From: Curvularia clavata
Taxonomy: Eukaryota
Reading direction: 5' to 3'
Length of the DNA stretch: 64,000 nt
Assembly: GCA_023920165.1 (NCBI GenBank)
Contig: CP089278.1
Location: 3,038,001 to 3,102,000 of the forward strand
Under the pieces are notes generated by a model, which worked only from the letters and a program-made list of their open reading frames with translations, was not told the DNA's origin and searched no databases. Positions within the stretch are counted from its first letter, which is position 1. Each line of letters begins with the position of its first letter. A program made the position numbers and the translations under genes. Shown one piece after another: positions 16,907-47,124 of the stretch.

Positions 16907-19900
16907 TTATTCAAACCCTGGCTCCTCCAGCACCGAGAAAAACTCATCTTCATCACCCTCATCATAGTCATATTCGTCTCCGTCCGCCCCGCTACCCTGT
17001 ACCGGAGCCTTGACGGGTTTCGGCTTCAAGTTCGAGCGGATCGGCAGTACCATGGATCTTGTATTAGCAATGCTATTGGCCTTGATCTTACAAAGCTCTG
17101 CTCCCGCCATCTTGAAGACGAAGCTCAACTTATCGGGTTTGTGGTACTTTCTGTAAAGTGCGGAGGCCTTAATTGCGTCCCACAGACATGATCCGGGTCG
17201 AAGATAAGGTGTCAACAGAGGCTTGATTTCGGGATCGTCGGGGTCGTCGGGCTGTATGGCTAGGTACTTTTGATAGCACTTTTCTACCTCTGCGTTTGCA
17301 TTCTCTGCTATGCCTGGAGAGTGCCATGTGGTATTCCATGCAGAGCGCACATTGCCCAGCTTCTGGTCCAGGGAGAACAGTTCCTTTTTCAGCACGTCTG
17401 ATTGTTTGTCGTAGAGATGCTGACTTGGATATAGCAATGCTTCATCCGGTTCATCGGCATTCGCTAGGACCTCTTTGACTTGCTTTATCGTCTCATCGTT
17501 GTGCGCCCGGACAATGTCGAAATAGAGATAATCCAGGATATTGTTGGGTTTGTAACGATACGGCTTCCTTCGAACGCTCTCCACATCCTTCGTCTTTGTC
17601 TTTCCGCAGTCCTCAATCGCCCTCTTGTAAGCCGGCGTTCCTGGTTTTCGTTTGCCAAGCAATCGATCCAAGAAGGCTTTGTAATTCTCCTTGGTTAGGA
17701 TGTACCCTTGCTTGCTCGCGTCGACCAGCAGGTCATGCATATCGTAGAGCTGTTCATGAATTCTAGAATGGATGCAGTTTGTGCTGTAGGAGTGACTTTC
17801 ACCGAGATTGGTAACTGCACCTAGCAGCGAAGGTTTGTAACGGAATTCGATGGCTTCCTTCAGGAACTTGTCTAGGTTTTCGGGGTTCTCGAGATCCACA
17901 ACCTGATCAAGTTTCTCGGTCTTCGTTTCGATACCATATTGAGAAGGATCTGGAGACTGGACTGGCGCAGGGGCGTTGTAAAACGGCTGTACAAGTGTAG
18001 GTTCCCAGCAAATCCAGAATATGTCGCCATCGTAATCGCCTCCTTGTAGTTTTCCAGCCAAAGGGTAGGGGCCTTTTGATGAGAAGACAACCACGTCTAC
18101 TAAATGCGATAGCTTAGGATGTACGACCGTCTTCACCCTCTGGATATCGGAGCGGCGACAGGCAGGCTGGCGAGCGACTAGGGCTTCCATGTCTCTGAGG
18201 CAGAGGTACCTCTCATCTGACGACTCGTCAATGAATGAAGTGGAGAACAAGACCTGAATCTGTCCAGGCTCCAGCTCGCCCAATGGGTCTGCTACTCCGT
18301 ACAGAAATGTAGACTTTGGGAGCGGTACACGTAGTTTAGCCTCTTGTAATATTTGCTTGGCCTGGATGAACCGCTCAAGATTTTGAGCAAGGTAGGCAAA
18401 CTTGAGAGGGTCGAAGCCAGACTCCAACAGAAGTTGAATTCTTTCCTCAAGCGACACCGGCAGACCGGCTTGCCAAATGACCTCCTCTCCTGGCTTAGCC
18501 TTTGCTCCGTTTCGATATATCCACTCGTGCAACTTCACCAGATCACCAACAACATCCAATAGCTTCATCCGGTCGTTTTCGAGGCAATCGGACATGAGAT
18601 TTGAGATCGCTTCCCTCGATACACCTCTATCTATTAATATTGGAATGAAGGACACATGCAGCTCAGACGGAGATGGCGCAGAGCTATAGTTCGATACTTC
18701 GAAAGTACGGTGGTGAGGAGGTTTATCATGTGGTAGATCGAACTTTTTCTGACTCCCATTGATTTTGATCCAGGGCTTCAAGTGCCTTGGGTCTTTGGTG
18801 TACGAGTCTGTATTTATCACCCAAAGTCCTTTAGCACCACCTATTCGCCCCTGAAAAGCACTAGGCAAGGGACCAGTGACTCCTGTGGTTTCTTTGTAGA
18901 GTCTCCATATCTCCTTTGCTGCACCCACCGACATGGTGCAACACCCATCATTCATGACCACCTTATCGGGTAAAGGGGGCCAATCAAGTTTGAAGTCGTT
19001 GAACTGAGTATCTTCAGCGTCTTTTGTACTCATCATGTCGGGTTCGTGATCCATCTGTCCATTTTCGAAACAGAGAGTGGGTATAGTCCGGGAAAGTCCA
19101 AGGTCGATGCGAGCAAAGACCTTACAGAGGAGCTGCTTATGATTCAGGCGCATGGGTAGGAACTTGTTCAGCATCTGACCAATTGTATAGGGTTGGTCAA
19201 TGTCAGCGCCTTCTGTGGCAAAAAGAACAATCCTCATGTCGTGTTCCGCATCCTTATTAACCTTCTTCAAGTTTTCAACATGAAATACTCTCCACTTGCG
19301 ACCCAGGAAGGTATGTTCCTTGTGCAACCATTTCTCCCACTGCTTTTGGATTTGCTTCTTTTGTTCCTGGACGAAGCGACGGCATTTAGAAGATGCGAAA
19401 TTGGGTGAGCGCACGTAAAGGAACCTGTCTGAACCGAACATCCGCTGCAGTCGACACGACTTGTCTCGTTGCACCGTCAGCGAATTGAGGTACAGGGGCG
19501 GACCTGTTTGTTTGGAGTTGAGAGTGATGTTTGCTTTGAACGTGTAACCATCAAATTGCTGTTTCTCTGCCTGCCAAAGATGACTCGAGTAGCGTGATTT
19601 GACTGCGGGTTTGCGCAACCGCTGGAGATGTTTATTCATAGTTCCCCAAAAGGCATCTGGATTAAGAAACGTTTCTGGCTTGGCAATGGCACCAACAGTG
19701 TCGCGCAAAGAAATAGACGACTCCAAGGCGATTCCACAGCTTATGAACAGCACGAAAAAGGGAACGAATTCCAACTCCTCCGGGAGTATTTCCACAAAAA
19801 GATGTTGGTCTGGTATGGTGCGTATTCCGTAATACTGTGTCTTTTCAAACTCAACTCTGTCATTGGGCTCAAGGAGCTCAGCCGTCTTTTCAACTTCAAA

Positions 19901-21269
19901 TGAGACATTAACAAGTTCGTCTTCGTCTACAGAACCAAAAGTGGATCTGCTTTGCACGCTGCTCTCTTGGGAGAAGATCTTATTCAAGTCTTCCTGTATG
20001 TCTTGCTCACGGATTCCGTGGTCTTGAGGCAATATCCCGCATTGCATTTCTGCCTGGAGAAGGGCGTCGTCGTCCGAGGAGTAGGCTGTAGTGGAGCTCG
20101 TTCTGTTGTTCGGTTTTGAATACGAAATGCTCTGTCCATGGATGTTGGTGTCACTGTTGTACGACGCGAAGGAAGTCGTTGCAGTGTTTGCGGTCTCTTG
20201 GGAGGAGAAAGTGCTGTTGTTGAAGGACGTGTTCGCTGAGCTGTCGCGACTTGTCTGAAATGAGGGTGCCATTTCACGGGTCGGTTTCTTGAACCGTGTC
20301 TGTCGGACTGACAGAGGGGTGACTGTCTGTTTTCCTCTCAGGGTTTTTGTCAACTTCGAAGAGGTCTCAGAATGATCACAGTCCAAGGGTCGTTTCCTCG
20401 TCATTTGCAAAGAGACACTTTTACTTGCCTGAGGAGATGCATGCGTAGGCCTAAGAAATGGCGAAGGAGATGGCGAGCGCGCCTCAAATTCCAAGTTTGT
20501 TTCATTGTCGGTGTCTTCGTCTGTGGGCGATCCTGGATCTATAGCGGTCACATACGACTCACGTGATTCCCACGACTCGCGTTCCTGTCGTCGGTCGGTA
20601 CGCAAAGGACTGAGTGTTTGCGACATGCTGGTTGTTTCTGTTTGTGATGTCTTGCCTGATTCCGTTCGCAATTCGCCAATTCTTTCTATTCGTATGTTAG
20701 TGCTTCAATCCCATGAGGGGTTCATAACTTCTGATGAAGGCTCCGAAGTAGAGAGATCTGACTCTGAGGCAGCCATGGAAAGTGACCATGATGTCCGCGA
20801 CGATGTCCTAGAGTAAACATCTATAGATGTTTGTCCCAGGAAGAGTTTACTAACCGCAGGAAGAAGAGACAAGACTTCTAGACTGTCCAATGTTTTGCGT
20901 CCTGACCTTTGAGGGGGTTACGCACTTCTTTGCCGCATTCGACAACAACTCGTACAATAAACTGAGGCGCTCCTGGGGTTGTTTACCCCAAGCACGGTTG
21001 TTAAACTCATCAATTGTATGATCAAGAGCTGATTCATCTTTGTACGTTAAATGTTGAATGTGACCGTAGACCTTGTTGGCTATGTCATTGGGGCTGAACT
21101 TTGTTGGTGAATAATTGAAGCCTCGTATTTTGATACCAAGGCTCCATTTGTCGTTGATTTCGCGGACCCGCCGGTCGATACGCTCTCCATGTGAGAGGAA
21201 CTGGTACGGCGTGCTTGGAAGCGAAGGAGGTGCGGGAGGACCCTTGGCCCTAGCATGAGCCGGCGGCAT
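16907..21269 (-). CDS. qde-1: RNA-dependent RNA polymerase, QDE-1 (quelling) type; intron 20686-20854
   Basis: Eukaryotic RdRP motifs RMFGSDRFL, MNDG, PSAFQGRIGGAKGLW, GVADPLGELEPGQI and catalytic KLQGGDYDGDIFWICW (DYDGD as in Neurospora QDE-1). The upstream exon starting MPPAHARAKG joins in frame via GTTAGT..CTAAC..TAG. Confidence 0.93.
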
Positions 21270-39077: not shown

Positions 39078-40313
39078 ATGTACACAAAGACTTTCTTTAC
39101 CCTTGCCCTTGCCGGCGCTGCTCAGGCTCACATGAGTTTGTTCTACCCTCCCCCTCTAGGTGGAGCCCCGTCCATTAACCCCCAGTCGACCGAGCTCGAT
39201 CCTGAGTTCAACTTTCCTCTTGGATGCTGCGGCCCCGATGGAGGTGACAGCAGACCCTCTCCAGGCCTCTGCCGTGGCCACATTGACAAGTTTGATACCG
39301 AGAAAGCCACCGTCACCTGGCAGCCTGGCCAAGACGCCCACTTCCAGCTTACCGACTTTGACTACGACCCAGCCGCGCCCGGCGGTACTCACTCTGGAGG
39401 TTCCTGCCAAGTTGGCTTCTCAGTAGACAAGGGCAAGACTTGGAAGTTGGCTGCCTCATATCACGGCGCTTGTCCCCATGCTACCACTGACGGCTCCCCT
39501 GAGGCTCAAACCTTTGACTTCAAGGTGCCTACCAATATGCCCGAAGGAGACGCCCTTTTCATGTGGATATGGCTTAACCGCGAACACGAAAGCTTCGAGT
39601 CGTGTGCCAAGGTTCATATTGGAGGAGGATCTGGCGATGGCAACAGCCCTAGCCAGCCTAGCCAGCCCTCTCAGCCGGCACCCCAGCCTGAGCAGCCAGC
39701 ATACCCTACGGACCCACCCAAGGAGACTCCCCAGCCTGAGGCTCCTCAGCAGCCAGGATACGCGGCTCCTCAGCCTGAAGCCCCTAAGCCGGAGGCTCCC
39801 CAGCAGCCGGGTAACGAGAAGCCTCCCACCGGCCCCGTTGTCACCGTCACTACCGTGATCGCAACCACCATCTACCAGACGGTCGAGGCGACCCCAACCC
39901 CCGACAACTCCGCCTCCAAGGCCAACGCCCGATCCTGGCAATGGCGTGCCCACCAGAAAGTCAAGCCCAACACCCGCCGCTACGAGGTCGACGGCTCCCG
40001 CTGCGACTGCACCCGTGACGAGTTCACCCTCGCCGCCCGCTGCTCCTGCGACTCGACTGATAAGGCCGTTGAGCGCAAGGCTCTCCGCCTGCACCGCCGC
40101 ACCTTCTATAAGCGTACCGACGCTTGCGACTGGAACACGGCCCCCGCTATGGAGACTTCATACTACACCATCGACGCTAAGTGCGCTCCTGGCGCTAAGG
40201 ATCGCGTGCCCGAGAGCGACAAGTTTGAGCTGGGCTGGGATGTCCCTTGTGGTGTTGTCGCGGGTGAGAGCGAGTACGAGATCAAGATGTTCTCTTGCGA
40301 CATGTACGGTTAA
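39078..40313 (+). CDS. Secreted AA11-like lytic polysaccharide monooxygenase with Pro/Gln-rich linker and Cys-rich C-terminus
   Basis: 17-aa signal peptide followed directly by His (39129); HSGGSCQ, SYHGACP, FKVP..GDALFMWIWLN and ESFESCA motifs of AA11. Confidence 0.8.
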   Translation: MYTKTFFTLALAGAAQAHMSLFYPPPLGGAPSINPQSTELDPEFNFPLGCCGPDGGDSRPSPGLCRGHIDKFDTEKATVTWQPGQDAHFQLTDFDYDPAAPGGTHSGGSCQVGFSVDKGKTWKLAASYHGACPHATTDGSPEAQTFDFKVPTNMPEGDALFMWIWLNREHESFESCAKVHIGGGSGDGNSPSQPSQPSQPAPQPEQPAYPTDPPKETPQPEAPQQPGYAAPQPEAPKPEAPQQPGNEKPPTGPVVTVTTVIATTIYQTVEATPTPDNSASKANARSWQWRAHQKVKPNTRRYEVDGSRCDCTRDEFTLAARCSCDSTDKAVERKALRLHRRTFYKRTDACDWNTAPAMETSYYTIDAKCAPGAKDRVPESDKFELGWDVPCGVVAGESEYEIKMFSCDMYG

Positions 40314-40436: not shown

Positions 40437-40957
40437 TTTCTGGCCACGTCTCATTTGAGCGGGTCTTTGATAGGGTCTTTGATACTGCGCATGATGGAAA
40501 TGCGCTTGTCTTGAGGGTGTGTTACTGGAGTTTGGGTCTTGGCTGTGCAGCTGATGGAAACAAAAGGAAAAAAATGGGAGGTGTATTGGCTTCTTGGTAT
40601 GGCCTCTTCTCATAGAAGAATGAAACTTGCTTGAGCAATCTTTTGCAAAACTCTCTGGCGTGAAGATGTGTGTGTATATTGATTCGCGATGTATGTCCTT
40701 GTTGTGTTCATTTAGTGACTAAGAAATAAGACTGTGGTTGTTACCTAGCTTTCTAAGCGGCCTAGCACGTATCCATCTAATGTCCCTCCCTAGGTCACGC
40801 AAATCCCTCTGTGCCGCAAGAAAAGAGGGTAACTTCAACTTCAAATGAGCAATACACTACGACTGGTTTAGTAGAGCCCGTTGAGCTCTATATATAGATA
40901 CTAGAACTTTTGAGGCCTCTCTCTGGGGCTAGCTTGAACTTCTCCGAAATACGAAAT

Positions 40958-43900
40958 TTACATGACCCTGCACCATCCTTTCTGCCTCTCAATCTGTTGC
41001 TGTAGTGATTTATCTGCCTCCACTACATCTCCATCCGCACCATCTCTTCCGCCCATCCCCATCCCCATCCCTGTTCTTTGCTGACCTTCTGCTACTTCTT
41101 TTACCTCTAAAGTCCCGCCTAAAGGATACGGGTTCTCCAACAATAACCTCCATCCCTCCTCCATCTCCAAAAACTCACTAGCAAACTCAAATAGTCTCCC
41201 AGTTATACACGCCTTATGCAAATCCATCGGATTCGCCCTATTCAACACCTGCCTATAAATCTCCATAAGCGTGAATGTATCTTCCAGTGTGTTACAATTG
41301 AAGAAGCCATAGTCGCAAGCGATTGCCGGGATGGGCGGATATGTTGTTAGATCCGCGTTCTCGAGGAATTGTTTGAGATCCCAAACGGACGGATGCGGAC
41401 CCGACGGCGGCACGGAAAGGAATGATTCGAGATAAGGTAAACGGGTGCGCAAATGCTTGAGGTCGTGAGAGTCTATGAGCTGAAGTAGTGTCCCGGCCTC
41501 GTAGGACTTCCAGAATGAAGCGAATGAAGCTGTGTGCGTAAGACTGCGCCGCTCATTGTGGAATGTGTAGAAGAAACTGCCATCGCTGGGGACAAGCAGG
41601 AGAAGGTATATTTCTAACAGCTGACTTTCCTCGGCGCTGTTGCGACAGGCTACAAAGGCGAACGTGTGGTACAGCATTGTGCTCGGGTTTGGGGTATGGC
41701 GGTGCAAGATGTGTGATAACAGAAAGAAGCTATCTCGTTTGGCCTCAGGTTTCAGCTCACTTGGGTGCATGTTACGGTCCCGAGGATCAAGGTACAGTTT
41801 TGCTTTGTCAAAGAAAGTCTCTGCGAGACTTCCCTCTGCTTCTTCTTTGGTTGTAGGCTTCTGCAGACGGTGCAGATTTTTGAGCCACCAGGGGAAGTAC
41901 TGGCCACGATGGGATTCGGGTATTCTGTAGAAAATCTCTTTGATCTTCTCAACCATGATACCTTTGACGCGCCATTCATGTAAGTCACTCGATGTAATGT
42001 CGCCGAAAAGACGAACGCCTTGGTATAGCCCAAAGAGGTTAGATCGGTCCCTGGCGTCAATGGCGTTGAAGCCGAAATCTTGCAAGACATCTTCGTCCAC
42101 GGGTATGATGTCTTCACCCAATGACTTCCAAAGATAGTCCGCTGAGGTGAGCTGGCGCTTTGAGCATGTGAATAGGTGATATACGGATGCTTTGCCTTCG
42201 CACGATTCACTACAGAAATGCCCTCTACTACAGTAGCTGCATCTTCTTTTGGTTGGCCGGTCACATACGTCGCATTCTGTTTTGTATGCTTCATCGTTTG
42301 ACGTGGAATGATAGCGGTTGACGAGAGTCTCTGACCTCTCTGATCGCCTGTAAGAATTAGGTTTGCGGGAAATTAAAGCATGAATTTGGATTTTCCTACC
42401 TTCTGAACATCTCTGCAACTCGATCCTGCTCCGCCTTCATAGCTAGATGATCAATCTGCACTCGCCTCGCCGAAATTTCGTCATGCTGAGTACCGATTAA
42501 GCTGCTGCCCCCAAGTACTGAAGTTCGTTCATGTCGAACTTTGCCTGCCACTGGGGTGACGAGCTTCTTTACTATCTCGTTCTGCAGTGATATCACAGCC
42601 TCACTGATTCGCTTGACCTGTTTCGGGAGAGGCAGCTCCACATTTGGAATAGTCCATGGCTTGAAAAGACGACCGTGGCATCCCCGTGTATTAAAGTGTC
42701 CATATGACTGGATAAACGCATGGCACATGAAGCAACACAGCTTACTACATCCAATGTAAGGCAATGTCTCAGGGCCAGACGAATTGGATGTGTTCAAGTG
42801 CATCAGTAATTGCACCTCGGCATGGATTTTCAGCTTCTGTCTCTGTCGCTCCATGAACTCGTGTTCAAGTTGACTCAGAGTCCACTTTGGACCCATGACG
42901 GCCTGAATTGTCCCCTTTTTTGTATCAAGGCCAAGAATATCAAATGTCTCCCTTAGCTTCATGAGACGATAAGGCGGTCTTGTGGGTGCAGGAGGTCGGG
43001 CCACTAGGGCGATGGTGATATGCATGAAACTCGGGAACGTTAGGGCGGTTTCCTTGAACTTTTCGCATGCAACTCTGAGCCGTGCAGTTAAACAGATGTT
43101 GACCCAAAGTCTTTTTGACGTAGAAGATGCTTGTGGAGAGCTGTTGAGCATTTTCTCTATAGTCTTTGACCGGCGTAGGTCGTATGCTGCGATAACAAGC
43201 TCTGAATGCCGGTCAAAAGTGCTTCCGCCATTGATATTTGTATCGAAAAGAAGTCCACGCAGAATCGATAGTTTTGAAGCAGGGTCTGGACTTTCGCCTG
43301 TTGTGTCAACATATGTCTCCCTAGATCCTACCTCGAAAGCTTTGAAGCTCGCTCTTAGATCGGGTATATAGCTACTCTGTATCCGACTCTGGTGGAAGGA
43401 CACCAGCACTTCCCATAGACGTAAATCTGTATTTGTATCTAAACAGATATCAACAGATATCAACAGATATCAACAGATATCAACAGATATCAACAGATAT
43501 CAACAGATGAGCTGTCGATGAAAAGTCAGTATGTTGAACATACCTTCGCCACGGGAATATGATTCCAACAGCCTTTCTAAGGCAGTAAAGATAGGCTTTT
43601 CAGCCTCTGAGAACCCCTCATTCCGAGCGATCCAGATGTACACGCTGTCTTTACTCTCCCTCATAGCAGAGCAAGCGACTCTAGTTCCGCCCTTTTTGTT
43701 TGCTGCAAATTCCGCCAAGCAGTCCAGAAACTTCTGCTTCAGCCTTCCATGTCCAGAATCTGTTATCAGATCAGCGCAGCCAGTGTCCACACTAGGTGCG
43801 CCTGCATTGTCATTGTTGTCGCTACTATAGTCTTCGTCGAGTACGGCGTTAGATAGCGAGGAGGCTTCGGCCTGGCCGCCGTTTCGAAGCGCTAGCAGAT

Positions 43901-43964
43901 TGGCTAGAGAGTGGAAATGGGACCAGTTTAGGCCTGGATAGTCCCAGTCGAATGTTTCGCCCAT
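40958..43964 (-). CDS. OTT_1508-like zinc deaminase fused to MYND-type zinc finger and C-terminal repeat domain (about 949 aa); introns 43439-43543 and 42348-42399
   Basis: IWIARNEG in the N-terminal region; IHAEVQLL ... YIGCSKLCCFMC ... RGCHGRLFKPW deaminase motifs; CDVC..RCSYC..FCSESC..HLFTC MYND pattern. Both introns restore the frame across three ORFs. Confidence 0.8.
43442..43508. repeat. 10-bp minisatellite (AACAGATATC) x about 6.7 inside intron 1 of the deaminase gene
   Basis: aacagatatc is repeated perfectly from 43442 to 43508. Confidence 0.95.
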
Positions 43965-44862
43965 TTCAAAACACACATCTATCGTTCGTGCTGGTGGTGT
44001 ATGATGCGTAGATGTGCGGGGTCGACTGGGACTCAGGTGCGAGGGGTGGTAGTACGCCTGCAGACCAATCAGCCAATGCAAGGTCGATACATATCACTGC
44101 CGCGAAAGAAAAGTAGCGTGTCATCTTTGCCGCGTTCCAAGCAGAGAAATGAACAAGTGCTGAACCAACTCAGTACTATGATGTCAACTGTTGAGACATC
44201 TTCTCAGCTCTCGCTCTATTGCCATCGTACACTTGCACTTCTACAGCGATAGCACCGAGTATGGCATGGAATAGCACCATAATACAACGGGAAAGCCAGG
44301 TTATTAGTGTATCAAACGGGATGGCTAGTGTCAACATGTTGTGAACACCACTACTGAGGCTATTATAATGGACACTACCCTTCCTACTACGCGGCTTGGA
44401 AGACAAAGGAACCCGCTCTGATGCCAGAAATAGATTAGCACGTGATCTGATAGATGCTTTGAGAGTTGAACGCTAGTATGCTTGGGCCTGGTTGGATCTA
44501 GTAGGAACTGACGCGCTATCTACGTAAGTATACGAAAGTTAGAACTGATAGGATGCCAATTAATTCTAGACTGAACAATACAAACAAGCCACGACAAGAC
44601 TAAACACACTATACTATCTTAGCTACCTTTCTAAAACTATATAGAGTAACCTCAAAAGTAACGATTCCATTACAATAGTGAGATGAAGCGATATGGCGGC
44701 CTTCAAGGCGCAAAAACTGCAGGTGCTTTGCGGCACGGCGGGATTTGCGTGACCTAGGGAGGAATACTATTTCCCACATCACCATACTTTGACGCTTCCT
44801 ACCTCGTTCCACTAAAGTCAACGCCTCCCACGCATTTCTGTATCTATTGACTGTTCACTTCA

Positions 44863-47124
44863 TCAACCCAGCCTCACCTCCACAGGCTCACTGGCATGCG
44901 CCTCCCAAACCACCTTGGGCACCCACCCACACGCCACTCTGTACGCGACACCCTCCCTGCGCTGAACCCAAAGCACATTATAAAATTCGCACTTTGCCTC
45001 CGCGTTTGCCGGCTCCTCTTTCTTTCTTTCCTCAGCCAGCGTATCCAGCACCTTCTTTCTCGCCTGGTGCCACAGCTTCAGTTCAAACCGCATTCTGTAC
45101 TCCTCTCCATATGCTGACAACGTATCTTTATTCGCCTCCATATCCTCCTGGACTGACTTTTCCACCGCTGCCTCCAGCGCATCTACATCGGATACAGCGC
45201 GGCTATCTGTCTCTTTTCCTGCATCTGGGTCAAATACTAGCGTAATATCGCACAGCAGCGCGCGGCGTTGGTGTCGTGAAAGCGGCGGTGTACCGAAGGG
45301 AATCAGTTTTCCCTCATTACCGTACGTGTAGAAGATTTGTCTATGAGTAAACACATCCCATTCAATCGTGTACTCCAGATCTGCTATTGTGGCGCTTCCT
45401 GTAGAAAGGGCGATGAGCTCGACTGGCTCGTGCGGATTCAGTTTGTCGTTGTTCATCAGGCGGAAGAGACCCGCGAAGAGGCCGTTAGGTTGTTGCAGGA
45501 CGAGGACGGGAGGGATTTTACCCTCTCGAGGGCCGAGGGCGAACATTCGGTCTTGCCAGACGGAGACTTTGGAGGCACCCCAGCTTATGAGGGACTGGGG
45601 CTTTTGGGGCCGCATGACAGATGCGATGTGAAATTTGGCGGTCGTGGTTTGGAAGACGAGGTGCGGTGCTGTGGTGAGGTTGGGGTGAGGTGAGGTGGCA
45701 AGGGATAGGGGGATGGGGTGCTTGAAGAGTACTTCGTGATCTTTCGCATGGCTGAAACGCAGAGAGTCTTTACCGAGTGCAGTATGGACATGCCAGTCTT
45801 CAGGAAGAAGTGTGTCAGGTGAACTTGAGAGACTGACGTGCTCGTCAAACATCTTCGGTTCAGGTATCAGCTCCACCTGGCCCTCCTCGTTAGACAAGTG
45901 CCACTCGACCAAGTTCCGTGTTCGCCAACTACGTGACCGGTTATTGATCTTCGGATCATCGATATAAGCTAGTCCTGGGCGAAGGCTCTCCGGGTCGACA
46001 TAACATTGCCATCCGCACCATGCCCAAGACGGGAGACTAGATACCGCACCGGAGGTACTCGATGGTTGGTCTCGATCAACGCGGCGCTCTGCAGTCTCAA
46101 ACGGTTGCCATAGCAGAACGTGATCGAGGAACATAGCCGGAATCCCTGACACAAATGGCCCAGGAAATGAGCCGGATAAGGCACTCAAGACACCCGAAAT
46201 GCCCAAGAGCGCATCTTGGGGGTAAGAGAAGTCTCTTCCGTTGTATGGGCAGATCAAATCAATGTAGAAGCCAAAGTCCGGCCACCACCGAGTCGAGAAC
46301 CGTTGTCCCATATCCGTATAAACTGATGTGGTTTTGTAGTATTGACCAGGTTTGAGATCCGCACCGTCCCACAAGCAGCGCTGGCAGTCCCAAAAGATGC
46401 CTTTGTCGGTGAACATGACGGCTCTCTTGCATAGTATTTGCTCTTGATATGTCCATCCTCTTGTCGCCCATCGCGATGCTCTCAGAACTTCATATCGGCC
46501 GTCCATGACACGGACGATATTGTCCTGGGTCAGCTGAGACGATCCCAGGTAGTTGTACATGGTGTTGAAGTTCGGCCATTCTGAAGTCCTATCACTCTGG
46601 TACATGGAGTCTGGTGCGGCCGCGACGATCGTGAGATAAGCTCCTGCATATATCCTGTCCATCCTTGTAACTTGATCCAGCGTCCCTGCGTCATTTTGTA
46701 GGATGCAAAGGCGATCGACCCAGAGAAATCGCTCGTTTAATGCGACTGTCACTCGCATAGCATGTTTGATCACACCTGGAAGGAGCTCTGCGATGGCCGC
46801 GCTGGAGAAGCATCCCGGTGTCTGGAGCCCCGCTACGCTCTCAGCATCTAGAAGTAAACTGCGTGGCGAAGGTGTGGAGCTATCGCGGGTTTCTGGCCAG
46901 GTATAGCTCAGAGCCAGGTAGCGATCAGCAGAGCTTCCGGGTACGAGGCACTGTTCTTGGGTGTCGATAAGCCATACTGGCACGTCTTCTTGCGGTTGTT
47001 GTGAGAGTGGTTTAGGGACACAGGTATCACCATGTGTTGTATCGCACGCATCTATCCACTCACGAATGCGAGAGGCATAGCTGGTTTGATTGCTTTTTAG
47101 AGGAAAGATTGATGTCGAGGCCAT
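44863..47124 (-). CDS. HET domain (heterokaryon incompatibility, PF06985-type) protein
   Basis: IREWIDACDTTH, RYLALSYTW, LPGVIKHAM, FLWVDRLCILQND, MDRIYAGAYLTIVAA, WATRGWTYQEQIL, YNGRDFSYPQDAL and LPSWAWCGW. Confidence 0.92.
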   Translation of the reverse strand: MASTSIFPLKSNQTSYASRIREWIDACDTTHGDTCVPKPLSQQPQEDVPVWLIDTQEQCLVPGSSADRYLALSYTWPETRDSSTPSPRSLLLDAESVAGLQTPGCFSSAAIAELLPGVIKHAMRVTVALNERFLWVDRLCILQNDAGTLDQVTRMDRIYAGAYLTIVAAAPDSMYQSDRTSEWPNFNTMYNYLGSSQLTQDNIVRVMDGRYEVLRASRWATRGWTYQEQILCKRAVMFTDKGIFWDCQRCLWDGADLKPGQYYKTTSVYTDMGQRFSTRWWPDFGFYIDLICPYNGRDFSYPQDALLGISGVLSALSGSFPGPFVSGIPAMFLDHVLLWQPFETAERRVDRDQPSSTSGAVSSLPSWAWCGWQCYVDPESLRPGLAYIDDPKINNRSRSWRTRNLVEWHLSNEEGQVELIPEPKMFDEHVSLSSSPDTLLPEDWHVHTALGKDSLRFSHAKDHEVLFKHPIPLSLATSPHPNLTTAPHLVFQTTTAKFHIASVMRPQKPQSLISWGASKVSVWQDRMFALGPREGKIPPVLVLQQPNGLFAGLFRLMNNDKLNPHEPVELIALSTGSATIADLEYTIEWDVFTHRQIFYTYGNEGKLIPFGTPPLSRHQRRALLCDITLVFDPDAGKETDSRAVSDVDALEAAVEKSVQEDMEANKDTLSAYGEEYRMRFELKLWHQARKKVLDTLAEERKKEEPANAEAKCEFYNVLWVQRREGVAYRVACGWVPKVVWEAHASEPVEVRLG

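Follow-up and report, generated by a model that had tools for sequence, protein, structure and literature searches.

An OTT_1508-family deaminase gene with a MYND-repeat half as the very probable cargo of a transposase-less pogo/Fot1-like element in Curvularia clavata

Background

The locus studied here raises two questions: what a fungus does with a deaminase joined to a zinc finger, and how the gene encoding it came to be where it is. It lies in a stretch of 64,000 nucleotides (nt) of Curvularia clavata (assembly GCA_023920165.1, contig CP089278.1, positions 3,038,001 to 3,102,000), hereafter called the window, in which a preliminary description made from the letters alone had recognised a zinc deaminase fused to a MYND finger and an unnamed repeat domain. 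Our analysis indicates that the gene is very probably the cargo of a pogo/Fot1-like (Tc1/mariner) element devoid of transposase, a setting that was missed in that description and is the most informative feature of the locus. The transposon ends enclosing the gene and the WCRVM sequence closing its product had both gone unnoticed before.

The MYND fusion and the idea of a role in defence or cell death are already known from Iyer et al. (2011; PMC3239186), who, in the parts of the article available, named a fungal OTT_1508-MYND fusion and proposed functions against selfish elements, against viruses and in heterokaryon cell death. OLD-1 and OLD-2 of Neurospora (Honda et al. 2025, as summarised in the review PMC12754623) edit UA sites from adenosine to inosine (A-to-I); during viral infection they act, with a cofactor that has yet to be named, on UAG in the mRNAs of adjacent zao genes, which encode tandem C2H2 fingers behind a premature UAG. 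The view of the preliminary description that such proteins are little characterised in fungi is out of date, since OLD-1 and OLD-2 are reported mRNA editors.

Results and discussion

The transposon that encloses the gene

Within 10.5 kb around the gene, the strongest inverted repeat is formed by two 42-nt arms that are 88% complementary, at 40778-40819 (plus strand, distal or 3' terminal repeat) and 44728-44769 (minus strand, proximal or 5' terminal repeat), with TA at both outer ends. They delimit an element of 3,992 nt including the TA at each end (40778-44769, minus strand). The distal arm is matched by a model built only from autonomous elements (E 3e-12), and its likeness to their ends extends to about 40852. 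The proximal arm is recognised by its pairing, by the end model and by shuffling, as none of 100 shuffles gave two matches. Adjoining it, the region 44245-44769 (minus strand) corresponds to a decayed 5' transposon end that includes the first transposase codons, is 71-77% identical to two elements on contig C7 of the same genome and matches the end models with E values of 1e-31 and 3e-13. On C7, three related repeat sites were found, which delimit elements A and B; element A (2,962 nt) carries an intact transposase with DDE_1 (E 3e-31) and HTH_Tnp_Tc5 domains, and element B is element A plus a 6.3-kb insert. The window element has in common with the C7 elements its first ca. 520 nt, including the transposase start, and its last ca. 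60-75 nt, the remainder of the transposase being gone. Because of these shared ends and the transposase relic, the window element is a deletion derivative in which the deaminase gene replaces the transposase, and we consider it very probable that the gene is cargo of a transposase-less pogo/Fot1-like element. The outer bases of both ends differ from those of autonomous ends. Genome-wide, 78 matches to the pogo-like transposase were found, many of them with TAG/TAA stops and one set near-identical and intact.

Inverted repeats of 42-49 nt, a putative TA target and a transposase with helix-turn-helix and DDE domains in the autonomous partner are shared with the fungal pogo/Fot1 elements described in PMC2836289, as far as its available text goes; here, in contrast, the ends flank an entire spliced gene of cellular origin, and the transposase has been deleted.

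Copies in related loci and spread between lineages

One metagenome scan rendered 47 loci, 29 of which belong to the close family, and these were searched with end models built solely from the transposase-bearing elements of the C. clavata genome. Transposon ends were found beside the gene in six of the 29 (L008, L009, L012, L016, L020 and L029; best E 1e-9 to 1e-50), with weaker matches at two more (L010 and L011) and none in reversed-sequence controls. In L016, an intact gene is flanked on each side by an end (4,388 nt). L012 is 94% identical to this locus up to the right inverted repeat and no further, and L009 shares with both just the gene and element DNA, having other flanks. Synonymous distances among L008, L009, L012 and L016 are 0.02-0.07, and no conserved neighbours appear among the metagenome loci beyond the near-identical ones. 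Near-identical copies thus occupy different insertion sites in relatives. A weak likeness to the proximal region of the transposon was also seen downstream of distant, MYND-less OTT_1508 genes (L045, 3385-3541; L047, 6542-6698).

In a tree of 15 proteins, a single clade for the seven from Pleosporales was rejected (approximately unbiased test, p-AU 0.0012), and proteins assigned by their sources to Lecanoromycetes lichens and to Pyrenula nest among those of Pleosporales. Identity across classes reaches 72-80%, against 54-61% inside Pleosporales; the Lentithecium protein, for instance, is 80% identical to that of the lichen fungus Xylographa and 54-61% to those of fellow Pleosporales. The housekeeping protein Sdo1 is 83% identical to that of Phaeosphaeria and 65-70% to those of Clohesyomyces and Periconia, and the respective values for exon 3 of the deaminase gene are 50%, 69% and 78% (two different Periconia species were used). 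This pattern fits a horizontal spread of the gene between fungal lineages.

A single spliced and transcribed gene

Three exons on the minus strand, at 43964-43544, 43438-42400 and 42347-40958, join into a frame of 949 amino acids (aa) plus stop, the last exon holding the MYND finger, the repeats, the tail and the stop. Both introns, of 105 nt (43439-43543) and 52 nt (42348-42399), follow the GT-AG rule. RNA contigs were taken from four of 19 public runs with unrecorded conditions; X9 is RNA by its record, whereas for X1 and X5 this is a guess, their splicing being evident from the GT-AG joints. Contigs of three of the four runs (X1, X5 and X9) have the 52-nt intron spliced out, and those of two (X1 and X5) lack the 105-nt intron too, with just 28 nt on the short side. 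The latter intron owes its length to 6.7 perfect copies of a 10-nt unit (43442-43508), an expansion with which it is still spliced, and alternative acceptors that would give introns of 32 and 117 nt were not seen in the RNA contigs of the four runs. The contigs of X1 and X5 pass unbroken through the MYND exon. The splicing of three open reading frames (ORFs) into one protein of ca. 949 aa, with deaminase and MYND parts in a single gene, therefore holds as first proposed, and the gene is real, transcribed and spliced. One RNA contig begins at 44359, within the transposon relic; contigs do not define transcript starts, and this is at most a hint that the old transposase promoter drives the deaminase gene.

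Next to the element, with its stop 94 nt beyond the right end, lies a HET-domain gene (44863-47124, minus strand; Pfam HET, 84.8 bits). The public gene model P0001 (1,686 aa) merges it with the deaminase gene and omits the MYND finger. Such a fusion was rejected: the MYND exon is continuous in the X1 and X5 contigs and no HET-deaminase joint occurs in the four runs, although a rare form would be beyond the reach of the contigs, and a transposon end separates the two genes. On present evidence the HET gene is separate, and P0001 appears to be an annotation error.

The deaminase half

Exon 2 (42400-43438) encodes a helical insert and the OTT_1508-like catalytic core. Pfam OTT_1508_deam (PF14441) matches it over positions 1-64 of 64 with 78.5 bits (cut-off 27; E 3.8e-22), and the whole signature given in Table 1 of Iyer et al. 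(HAE, GCSK, CFMC, HG and WTIP) is present: HAE lies at 42816-42824, the GCSK-CxxC (CFMC) stretch YIGCSKLCCFMC at 42723-42758 and RGCHGRLFKPW at 42654-42686, the HG..W-x-x-P loop beginning at 42686. The catalytic H, E, C and C are kept in all 53 aligned fused homologs, which had been chosen for carrying the domain. The family assignment and the intact active site of the preliminary description are in this way borne out, also by the profile search it had suggested, and the product is shown by these sequence matches to be an OTT_1508/OLD-family zinc deaminase.

Exon 1 (43544-43964) would contribute a helix and two strands, according to a homolog model and the alignment, closed by a conserved ARN motif at 43620-43634; the Asn closing strand 2 is kept in 37 of the 39 alignment rows that have a residue there. 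The full-length model of homolog P0004 (936 residues; mean predicted local distance difference test, pLDDT, of 84) presents, in order, the exon 1 helix and two strands, a long helical insert, the helix with HAE, one strand and the helix with CxxC. Because of this order and its agreement with the table of Iyer et al., exon 1 and the exon 2 core may be read as one deaminase fold interrupted by a helical insert. No deaminase was among the matches of the fold search, for which the 936-residue model served as query and whose rows were taken up by the helical insert.

The MYND finger, the repeat domain and the tail

The MYND finger (42164-42274, minus strand) has all eight zinc ligands (C4-C2HC). 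Its Pfam zf-MYND (PF01753) score in the window protein, 16.1 bits, is below the gathering cut-off of 22.7, which several homologs exceed; the check proposed for it thus failed by score, whereas ligands, profile and structure agree. The family profile matches solved MYND domains with E 2e-8, and the best structural match of the model is a MYND domain (Z 5.8, root-mean-square deviation 3.5, 50 residues aligned). Profile and model together confirm it as a genuine MYND finger despite the sub-threshold score.

The helical C-terminal region of the preliminary description is now resolved, by profiles and a model, into an unnamed domain (41120-42157, minus strand) of three repeats, each starting with a [DT][FY][GA]F-like motif. 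The repeats are related to one another (profile-profile probabilities of 96.5, 89.2 and 94.4%), and the domain is modelled as all-helical with pLDDT 95.3 and a predicted template modelling score (pTM) of 0.83. It has no Pfam match; Foldseek searches of the PDB and of models of viral proteins had no result at E≤0.001, and a wide structural search gave at best Z 5.0 outside the MYND part, with repeats 2-3 scarcely covered. A language-model atlas gave no useful family, and PADLOC and NCBIfam gave no match for five proteins each. This absence of library matches does not establish a new fold. An N-terminal alpha/beta region, a helical insert, the GxxK-CxxC core and a MYND fusion are all shared with the proteins outlined in the available parts of Iyer et al. 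(2011). The MYND/SIR2-like fusions described there differ in that the window protein has the three-repeat helical domain in its C-terminal part; no Sir2 match was found in exon 3 or among 79 homologs scanned with Pfam.

The sequence WCRVM (40961-40975, minus strand) closes the protein behind an acidic linker of low complexity, CRVM standing directly before the stop. This CaaX-like end, with an atypical R at a1, may be a prenylation motif holding the protein at membranes. Tails of at least 20 residues are present in 36 of the 144 homologs whose third repeat is complete, and CxxX ends occur in seven of these against none of the 108 short-tailed ones, counts that kinship makes non-independent; homologs have such ends as CGVM, CSIL and CTIQ; CaaX-like ends are found in three separate branches of the tree. 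Many other long tails finish in a Trp/Leu-rich amphipathic or hydrophobic stretch.

Family, paralogs and selection

The search rendered 791 matches at E≤0.001 among 1.84 billion representative proteins. In 169 proteins examined with our own profiles, the MYND-repeat module occurs alone or joined to the deaminase half, and no other domain partner exceeded the Pfam cut-off in the 79 scanned homologs. Judging from named proteins, fused forms exist in Dothideomycetes, lichens, Aspergillus, Botrytis, Sordariales, Rhizina and Pisolithus, and stand-alone and tandem MYND-repeat modules in mushrooms. Since many database entries of ca. 336 and ca. 400 aa are single exons predicted without splicing, only named mushroom proteins were counted as stand-alone modules. 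A relative in Bipolaris maydis (P0176) lacks, as annotated, the CxxC and most of the C-terminal half, and looks decayed or mis-predicted.

Two paralogs were found in the C. clavata genome. That on contig C3 (L003, 5717-8682) is distant and has the same three-exon build, without transposon ends or CaaX; it is followed, a few kb downstream, by a long CAG repeat (L004, ca. 2600-2930). The copy on contig C6 (L006, 370-2163) keeps an intact frame of 597 aa with the helical insert and repeats 2-3; catalytic core, MYND finger and first repeat are all missing from it. Similar forms occur in Massariosphaeria and Melanomma. It is possible that this core-less copy acts as a decoy or regulator. The pairwise ratio of nonsynonymous to synonymous rates (dN/dS), computed by a simple counting method on nine chosen intact loci, is about 0.1-0.3 between distant copies and 0.2-0.9 among recent ones, which by this measure makes purifying selection clear between the former and weaker among the latter. 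Nine of the 29 close-family metagenome loci appear broken at the ORF level by a frameshift, stop, insertion or deletion.

A second cargo element

Nested in element B of contig C7 is a TA-bounded element of 6,315 nt (L063, 964-7278) with related-looking inverted repeats of its own, which holds a divergent pair of genes, one HeLo and one NACHT-WD40, the latter with 14 near-identical repeats. In both genes we see by eye what we take to be HET-s-type amyloid motifs. Element B was ruled out as the direct carrier of this NOD-like receptor (NLR) pair, which sits in its own nested element. A second NACHT-WD40 gene (L105, 128-5606, also on C7; about 80% DNA identity) lies beside another copy of that repeat. 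This transposon type thus carries immune-receptor-type genes as well, although the link between cargo and immunity comes from the small number of cargo elements looked at. Another NLR-like gene comes after the one in L105, and a 424-aa frame with multiple C2H2 patterns (L061, 6508-7887), possibly cargo, ends beside a degenerate repeat of the same transposon type.

The C7 genes resemble the HET-S/NWD2 amyloid pair in having divergent HeLo and NACHT-WD40 genes (PMC3321046, from its accessible text); unlike that pair, they lie inside inverted repeats, in an element separate from that of the window. Like ToxhAT and the Starships, some of which carry NLRs (PMC13449251, in the portions available), the elements described here would shuttle accessory genes between sites and species, yet ToxhAT is a 14-kb hAT element and Starships are giant tyrosine-recombinase elements, whereas these are Tc1/mariner derivatives of 4-6 kb with one or two cargo genes.

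A possible mobile defence gene and its alternatives

We give an even chance to the interpretation that the locus is a mobile cassette for defence whose product, an OLD-like RNA deaminase, is regulated by its own MYND-repeat half; substrate, gating and role in defence are what we infer. According to this interpretation, the cassette has likely spread by cut-and-paste with transposase supplied in trans, also between fungal lineages, and has likely been retained for the benefit that its protein brings. By analogy with OLD of Neurospora, the enzyme would deaminate A to I in RNA within a non-self or antiviral response that would slow or kill the affected hyphal compartment. The MYND-repeat half may bind the deaminase half and act as a built-in brake, cofactor or target adaptor, the CaaX tail could keep the protein at membranes and off chromatin, and the target would be other than an adjacent zao gene. 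The editing, antiviral or cell-death role of the preliminary description is thus plausible, but it is not new, having been put forward by Iyer et al. and matched by the reported activity of OLD-1 and OLD-2.

The window protein shares with OLD a deaminase domain of the OTT_1508-like kind, an HxE...CxxC centre and a filamentous ascomycete host (PMC12754623; PMC13327615, the latter in part). It differs in lying within a DNA transposon, in its MYND-repeat half and CaaX-like tail and in the lack of an adjacent multi-C2H2 zao gene; moreover, editing is reported for OLD, whereas none was seen here. The text of the review mentions neither a MYND domain nor a transposon link for OLD. No ORF with at least two C2H2 patterns was found in the 47 metagenome loci, in which intron-split fingers can be missed and several flanks are short. 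As no zao-like neighbour was found, the arrangement is not that of OLD-ZAO.

Gating by the MYND-repeat module, as first proposed, receives a weak indication from docking. The two halves of P0004 dock with a score of 0.53, against 0.00 for the best control, with at least 37% of contacts shared and a partner pLDDT of at least 76; however, only five of 78 solved pairs passed at scores of up to 0.60, as did all four false passes of 180, so that a docking of this quality is more often wrong than right unless likely beforehand.

Several observations weigh against the defence cassette. The window element is single-copy in this genome with mutated ends, no empty insertion site was seen for it, neither paralog (C3 or C6) has a transposon end, and 21 of the 29 close-family loci show none either. 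The metagenome copies are oriented distal-to-proximal, opposite to the window gene, and their repeats resemble another transposon subfamily, for which reasons either two captures or one inversion would have taken place. The Pleosporales group was named for the test after the first tree had been seen, and old, hidden paralogy could account for part of that tree. The single-chain P0004 model has a pTM of 0.55, and 108 of the 144 homologs have no tail at all. Neither in the window nor near the C3 paralog did the search for zao find a C2H2-pattern ORF. The RNA contigs differ by fixed changes of mixed types that look like strain variants (contigs only, with no matched DNA), and U stands at -1 in none of the three A-to-G changes that fall within the coding sequence; no editing signal could be separated from strain differences in these contigs. 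Finally, Iyer et al. (2011), in the parts available, expected the OTT_1508 clade to act on cytosine, and the likeness to Neurospora OLD was judged from a description of those proteins.

Of the alternatives, the one that survives best, though we consider it unlikely, is that an accessory deaminase with a job outside defence (on tRNA, small RNA or nucleotides) was captured by chance and hitch-hikes. Most relatives have neither transposon ends nor conserved neighbours, dN/dS is relaxed (0.2-0.9) among recent copies, and the link between cargo and immunity comes from few elements. Yet the other cargo with such ends in this genome is of immune type (the HeLo/NLR pair on C7 and the second NLR gene beside the same end), and captures have lasted in two orientations and across two subfamilies of the transposon.

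Somewhat less credible still is a selfish cassette in which the deaminase half is the poison and the MYND-repeat half the antidote, so that the transposon would persist by harming nuclei or spores without it. Spok spore killers are a model for this way of working. The gene is transposon-borne, patchy and often broken (nine of 29 close-family loci), the MYND-repeat module stands alone in named mushroom proteins, core-less copies exist in this genome and in two other Pleosporales, and the two halves dock weakly. Against this, the gene is transcribed in several runs and not obviously stage-limited (run conditions being unrecorded), the window copy has outlasted its transposase with an intact frame, the one tested function of the family is host defence, and assembly errors or additional introns may explain some of the breaks.

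Equally improbable is a chromatin-targeted mutator that would dock by its MYND finger on chromatin proteins and deaminate cytosine in the DNA of selfish elements, since, despite its publication by Iyer et al. (2011, in the part seen, where the clade is grouped near AID/APOBEC), the nuclear regulators that make up most solved MYND matches and the TAG/TAA stops in many transposase copies, the tested fungal members edit RNA adenosines, the CaaX-like, amphipathic or hydrophobic tails of many long-tailed homologs suggest membranes and argue against the chromatin role, and RIP (repeat-induced point mutation) accounts for those stops without this enzyme. RIP is an established source of such stops in fungal transposase copies.

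Other genes in the window

A housekeeping gene of the window is 100% identical to a protein recorded for C. clavata, which makes the host this species or a very near one. A frame of 1,265 aa containing the motif GDYDGD (16907-20704, minus strand), some 20 kb away from the cassette, is presumably an RNA-dependent RNA polymerase of RNA interference. The protein encoded at 39078-40313 (plus strand) looks secreted; in it, His directly follows the signal peptide and there is a linker rich in Pro and Gln. We take it to be similar to lytic polysaccharide monooxygenases; it has no Pfam match above cut-off.

Conclusions

The immune genes of fungi show rapid turnover and pass between species; the carriers known so far are the giant Starships or isolated cases, ToxhAT being one. 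In the literature searched, which left most subscription papers and the primary OLD paper outside, only Iyer et al. (2011) was found on OTT_1508 with MYND and nothing on OTT_1508 with a transposon, and titles and listings gave no paper on pogo-type elements with such cargo; transposon carriage is not mentioned in the available parts of Iyer et al. The gene's place within a transposon, the tails of membrane type and the repeat domain, which combines a confident model with no match in the libraries searched, would thus be new, although the primary OLD paper could already mention MYND-fused OLDs.

We put forward only tentatively, as a rather doubtful extension, that small pogo/Fot1-type elements are recurrent vehicles of fungal immune genes, separate non-autonomous ones taking an OLD-like RNA editor or an NLR/HET-S death module from locus to locus and from one fungal class to another, and that this editor is a self-contained, membrane-anchored receptor-effector with the MYND-repeat half as an undescribed sensor fold, representing a second, ZAO-independent antiviral mode of OTT_1508 proteins. 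The protein offers a one-gene test of how an OTT_1508 deaminase acts when no zao partner is present, and may bring to light the cofactor still missing for OLD. The setting suggests a path along which defence genes travel in fungi: a 4-kb Tc1/mariner derivative with a whole editing enzyme, together with an element of like type carrying NLR/HET-S genes, would make this route simple and countable.

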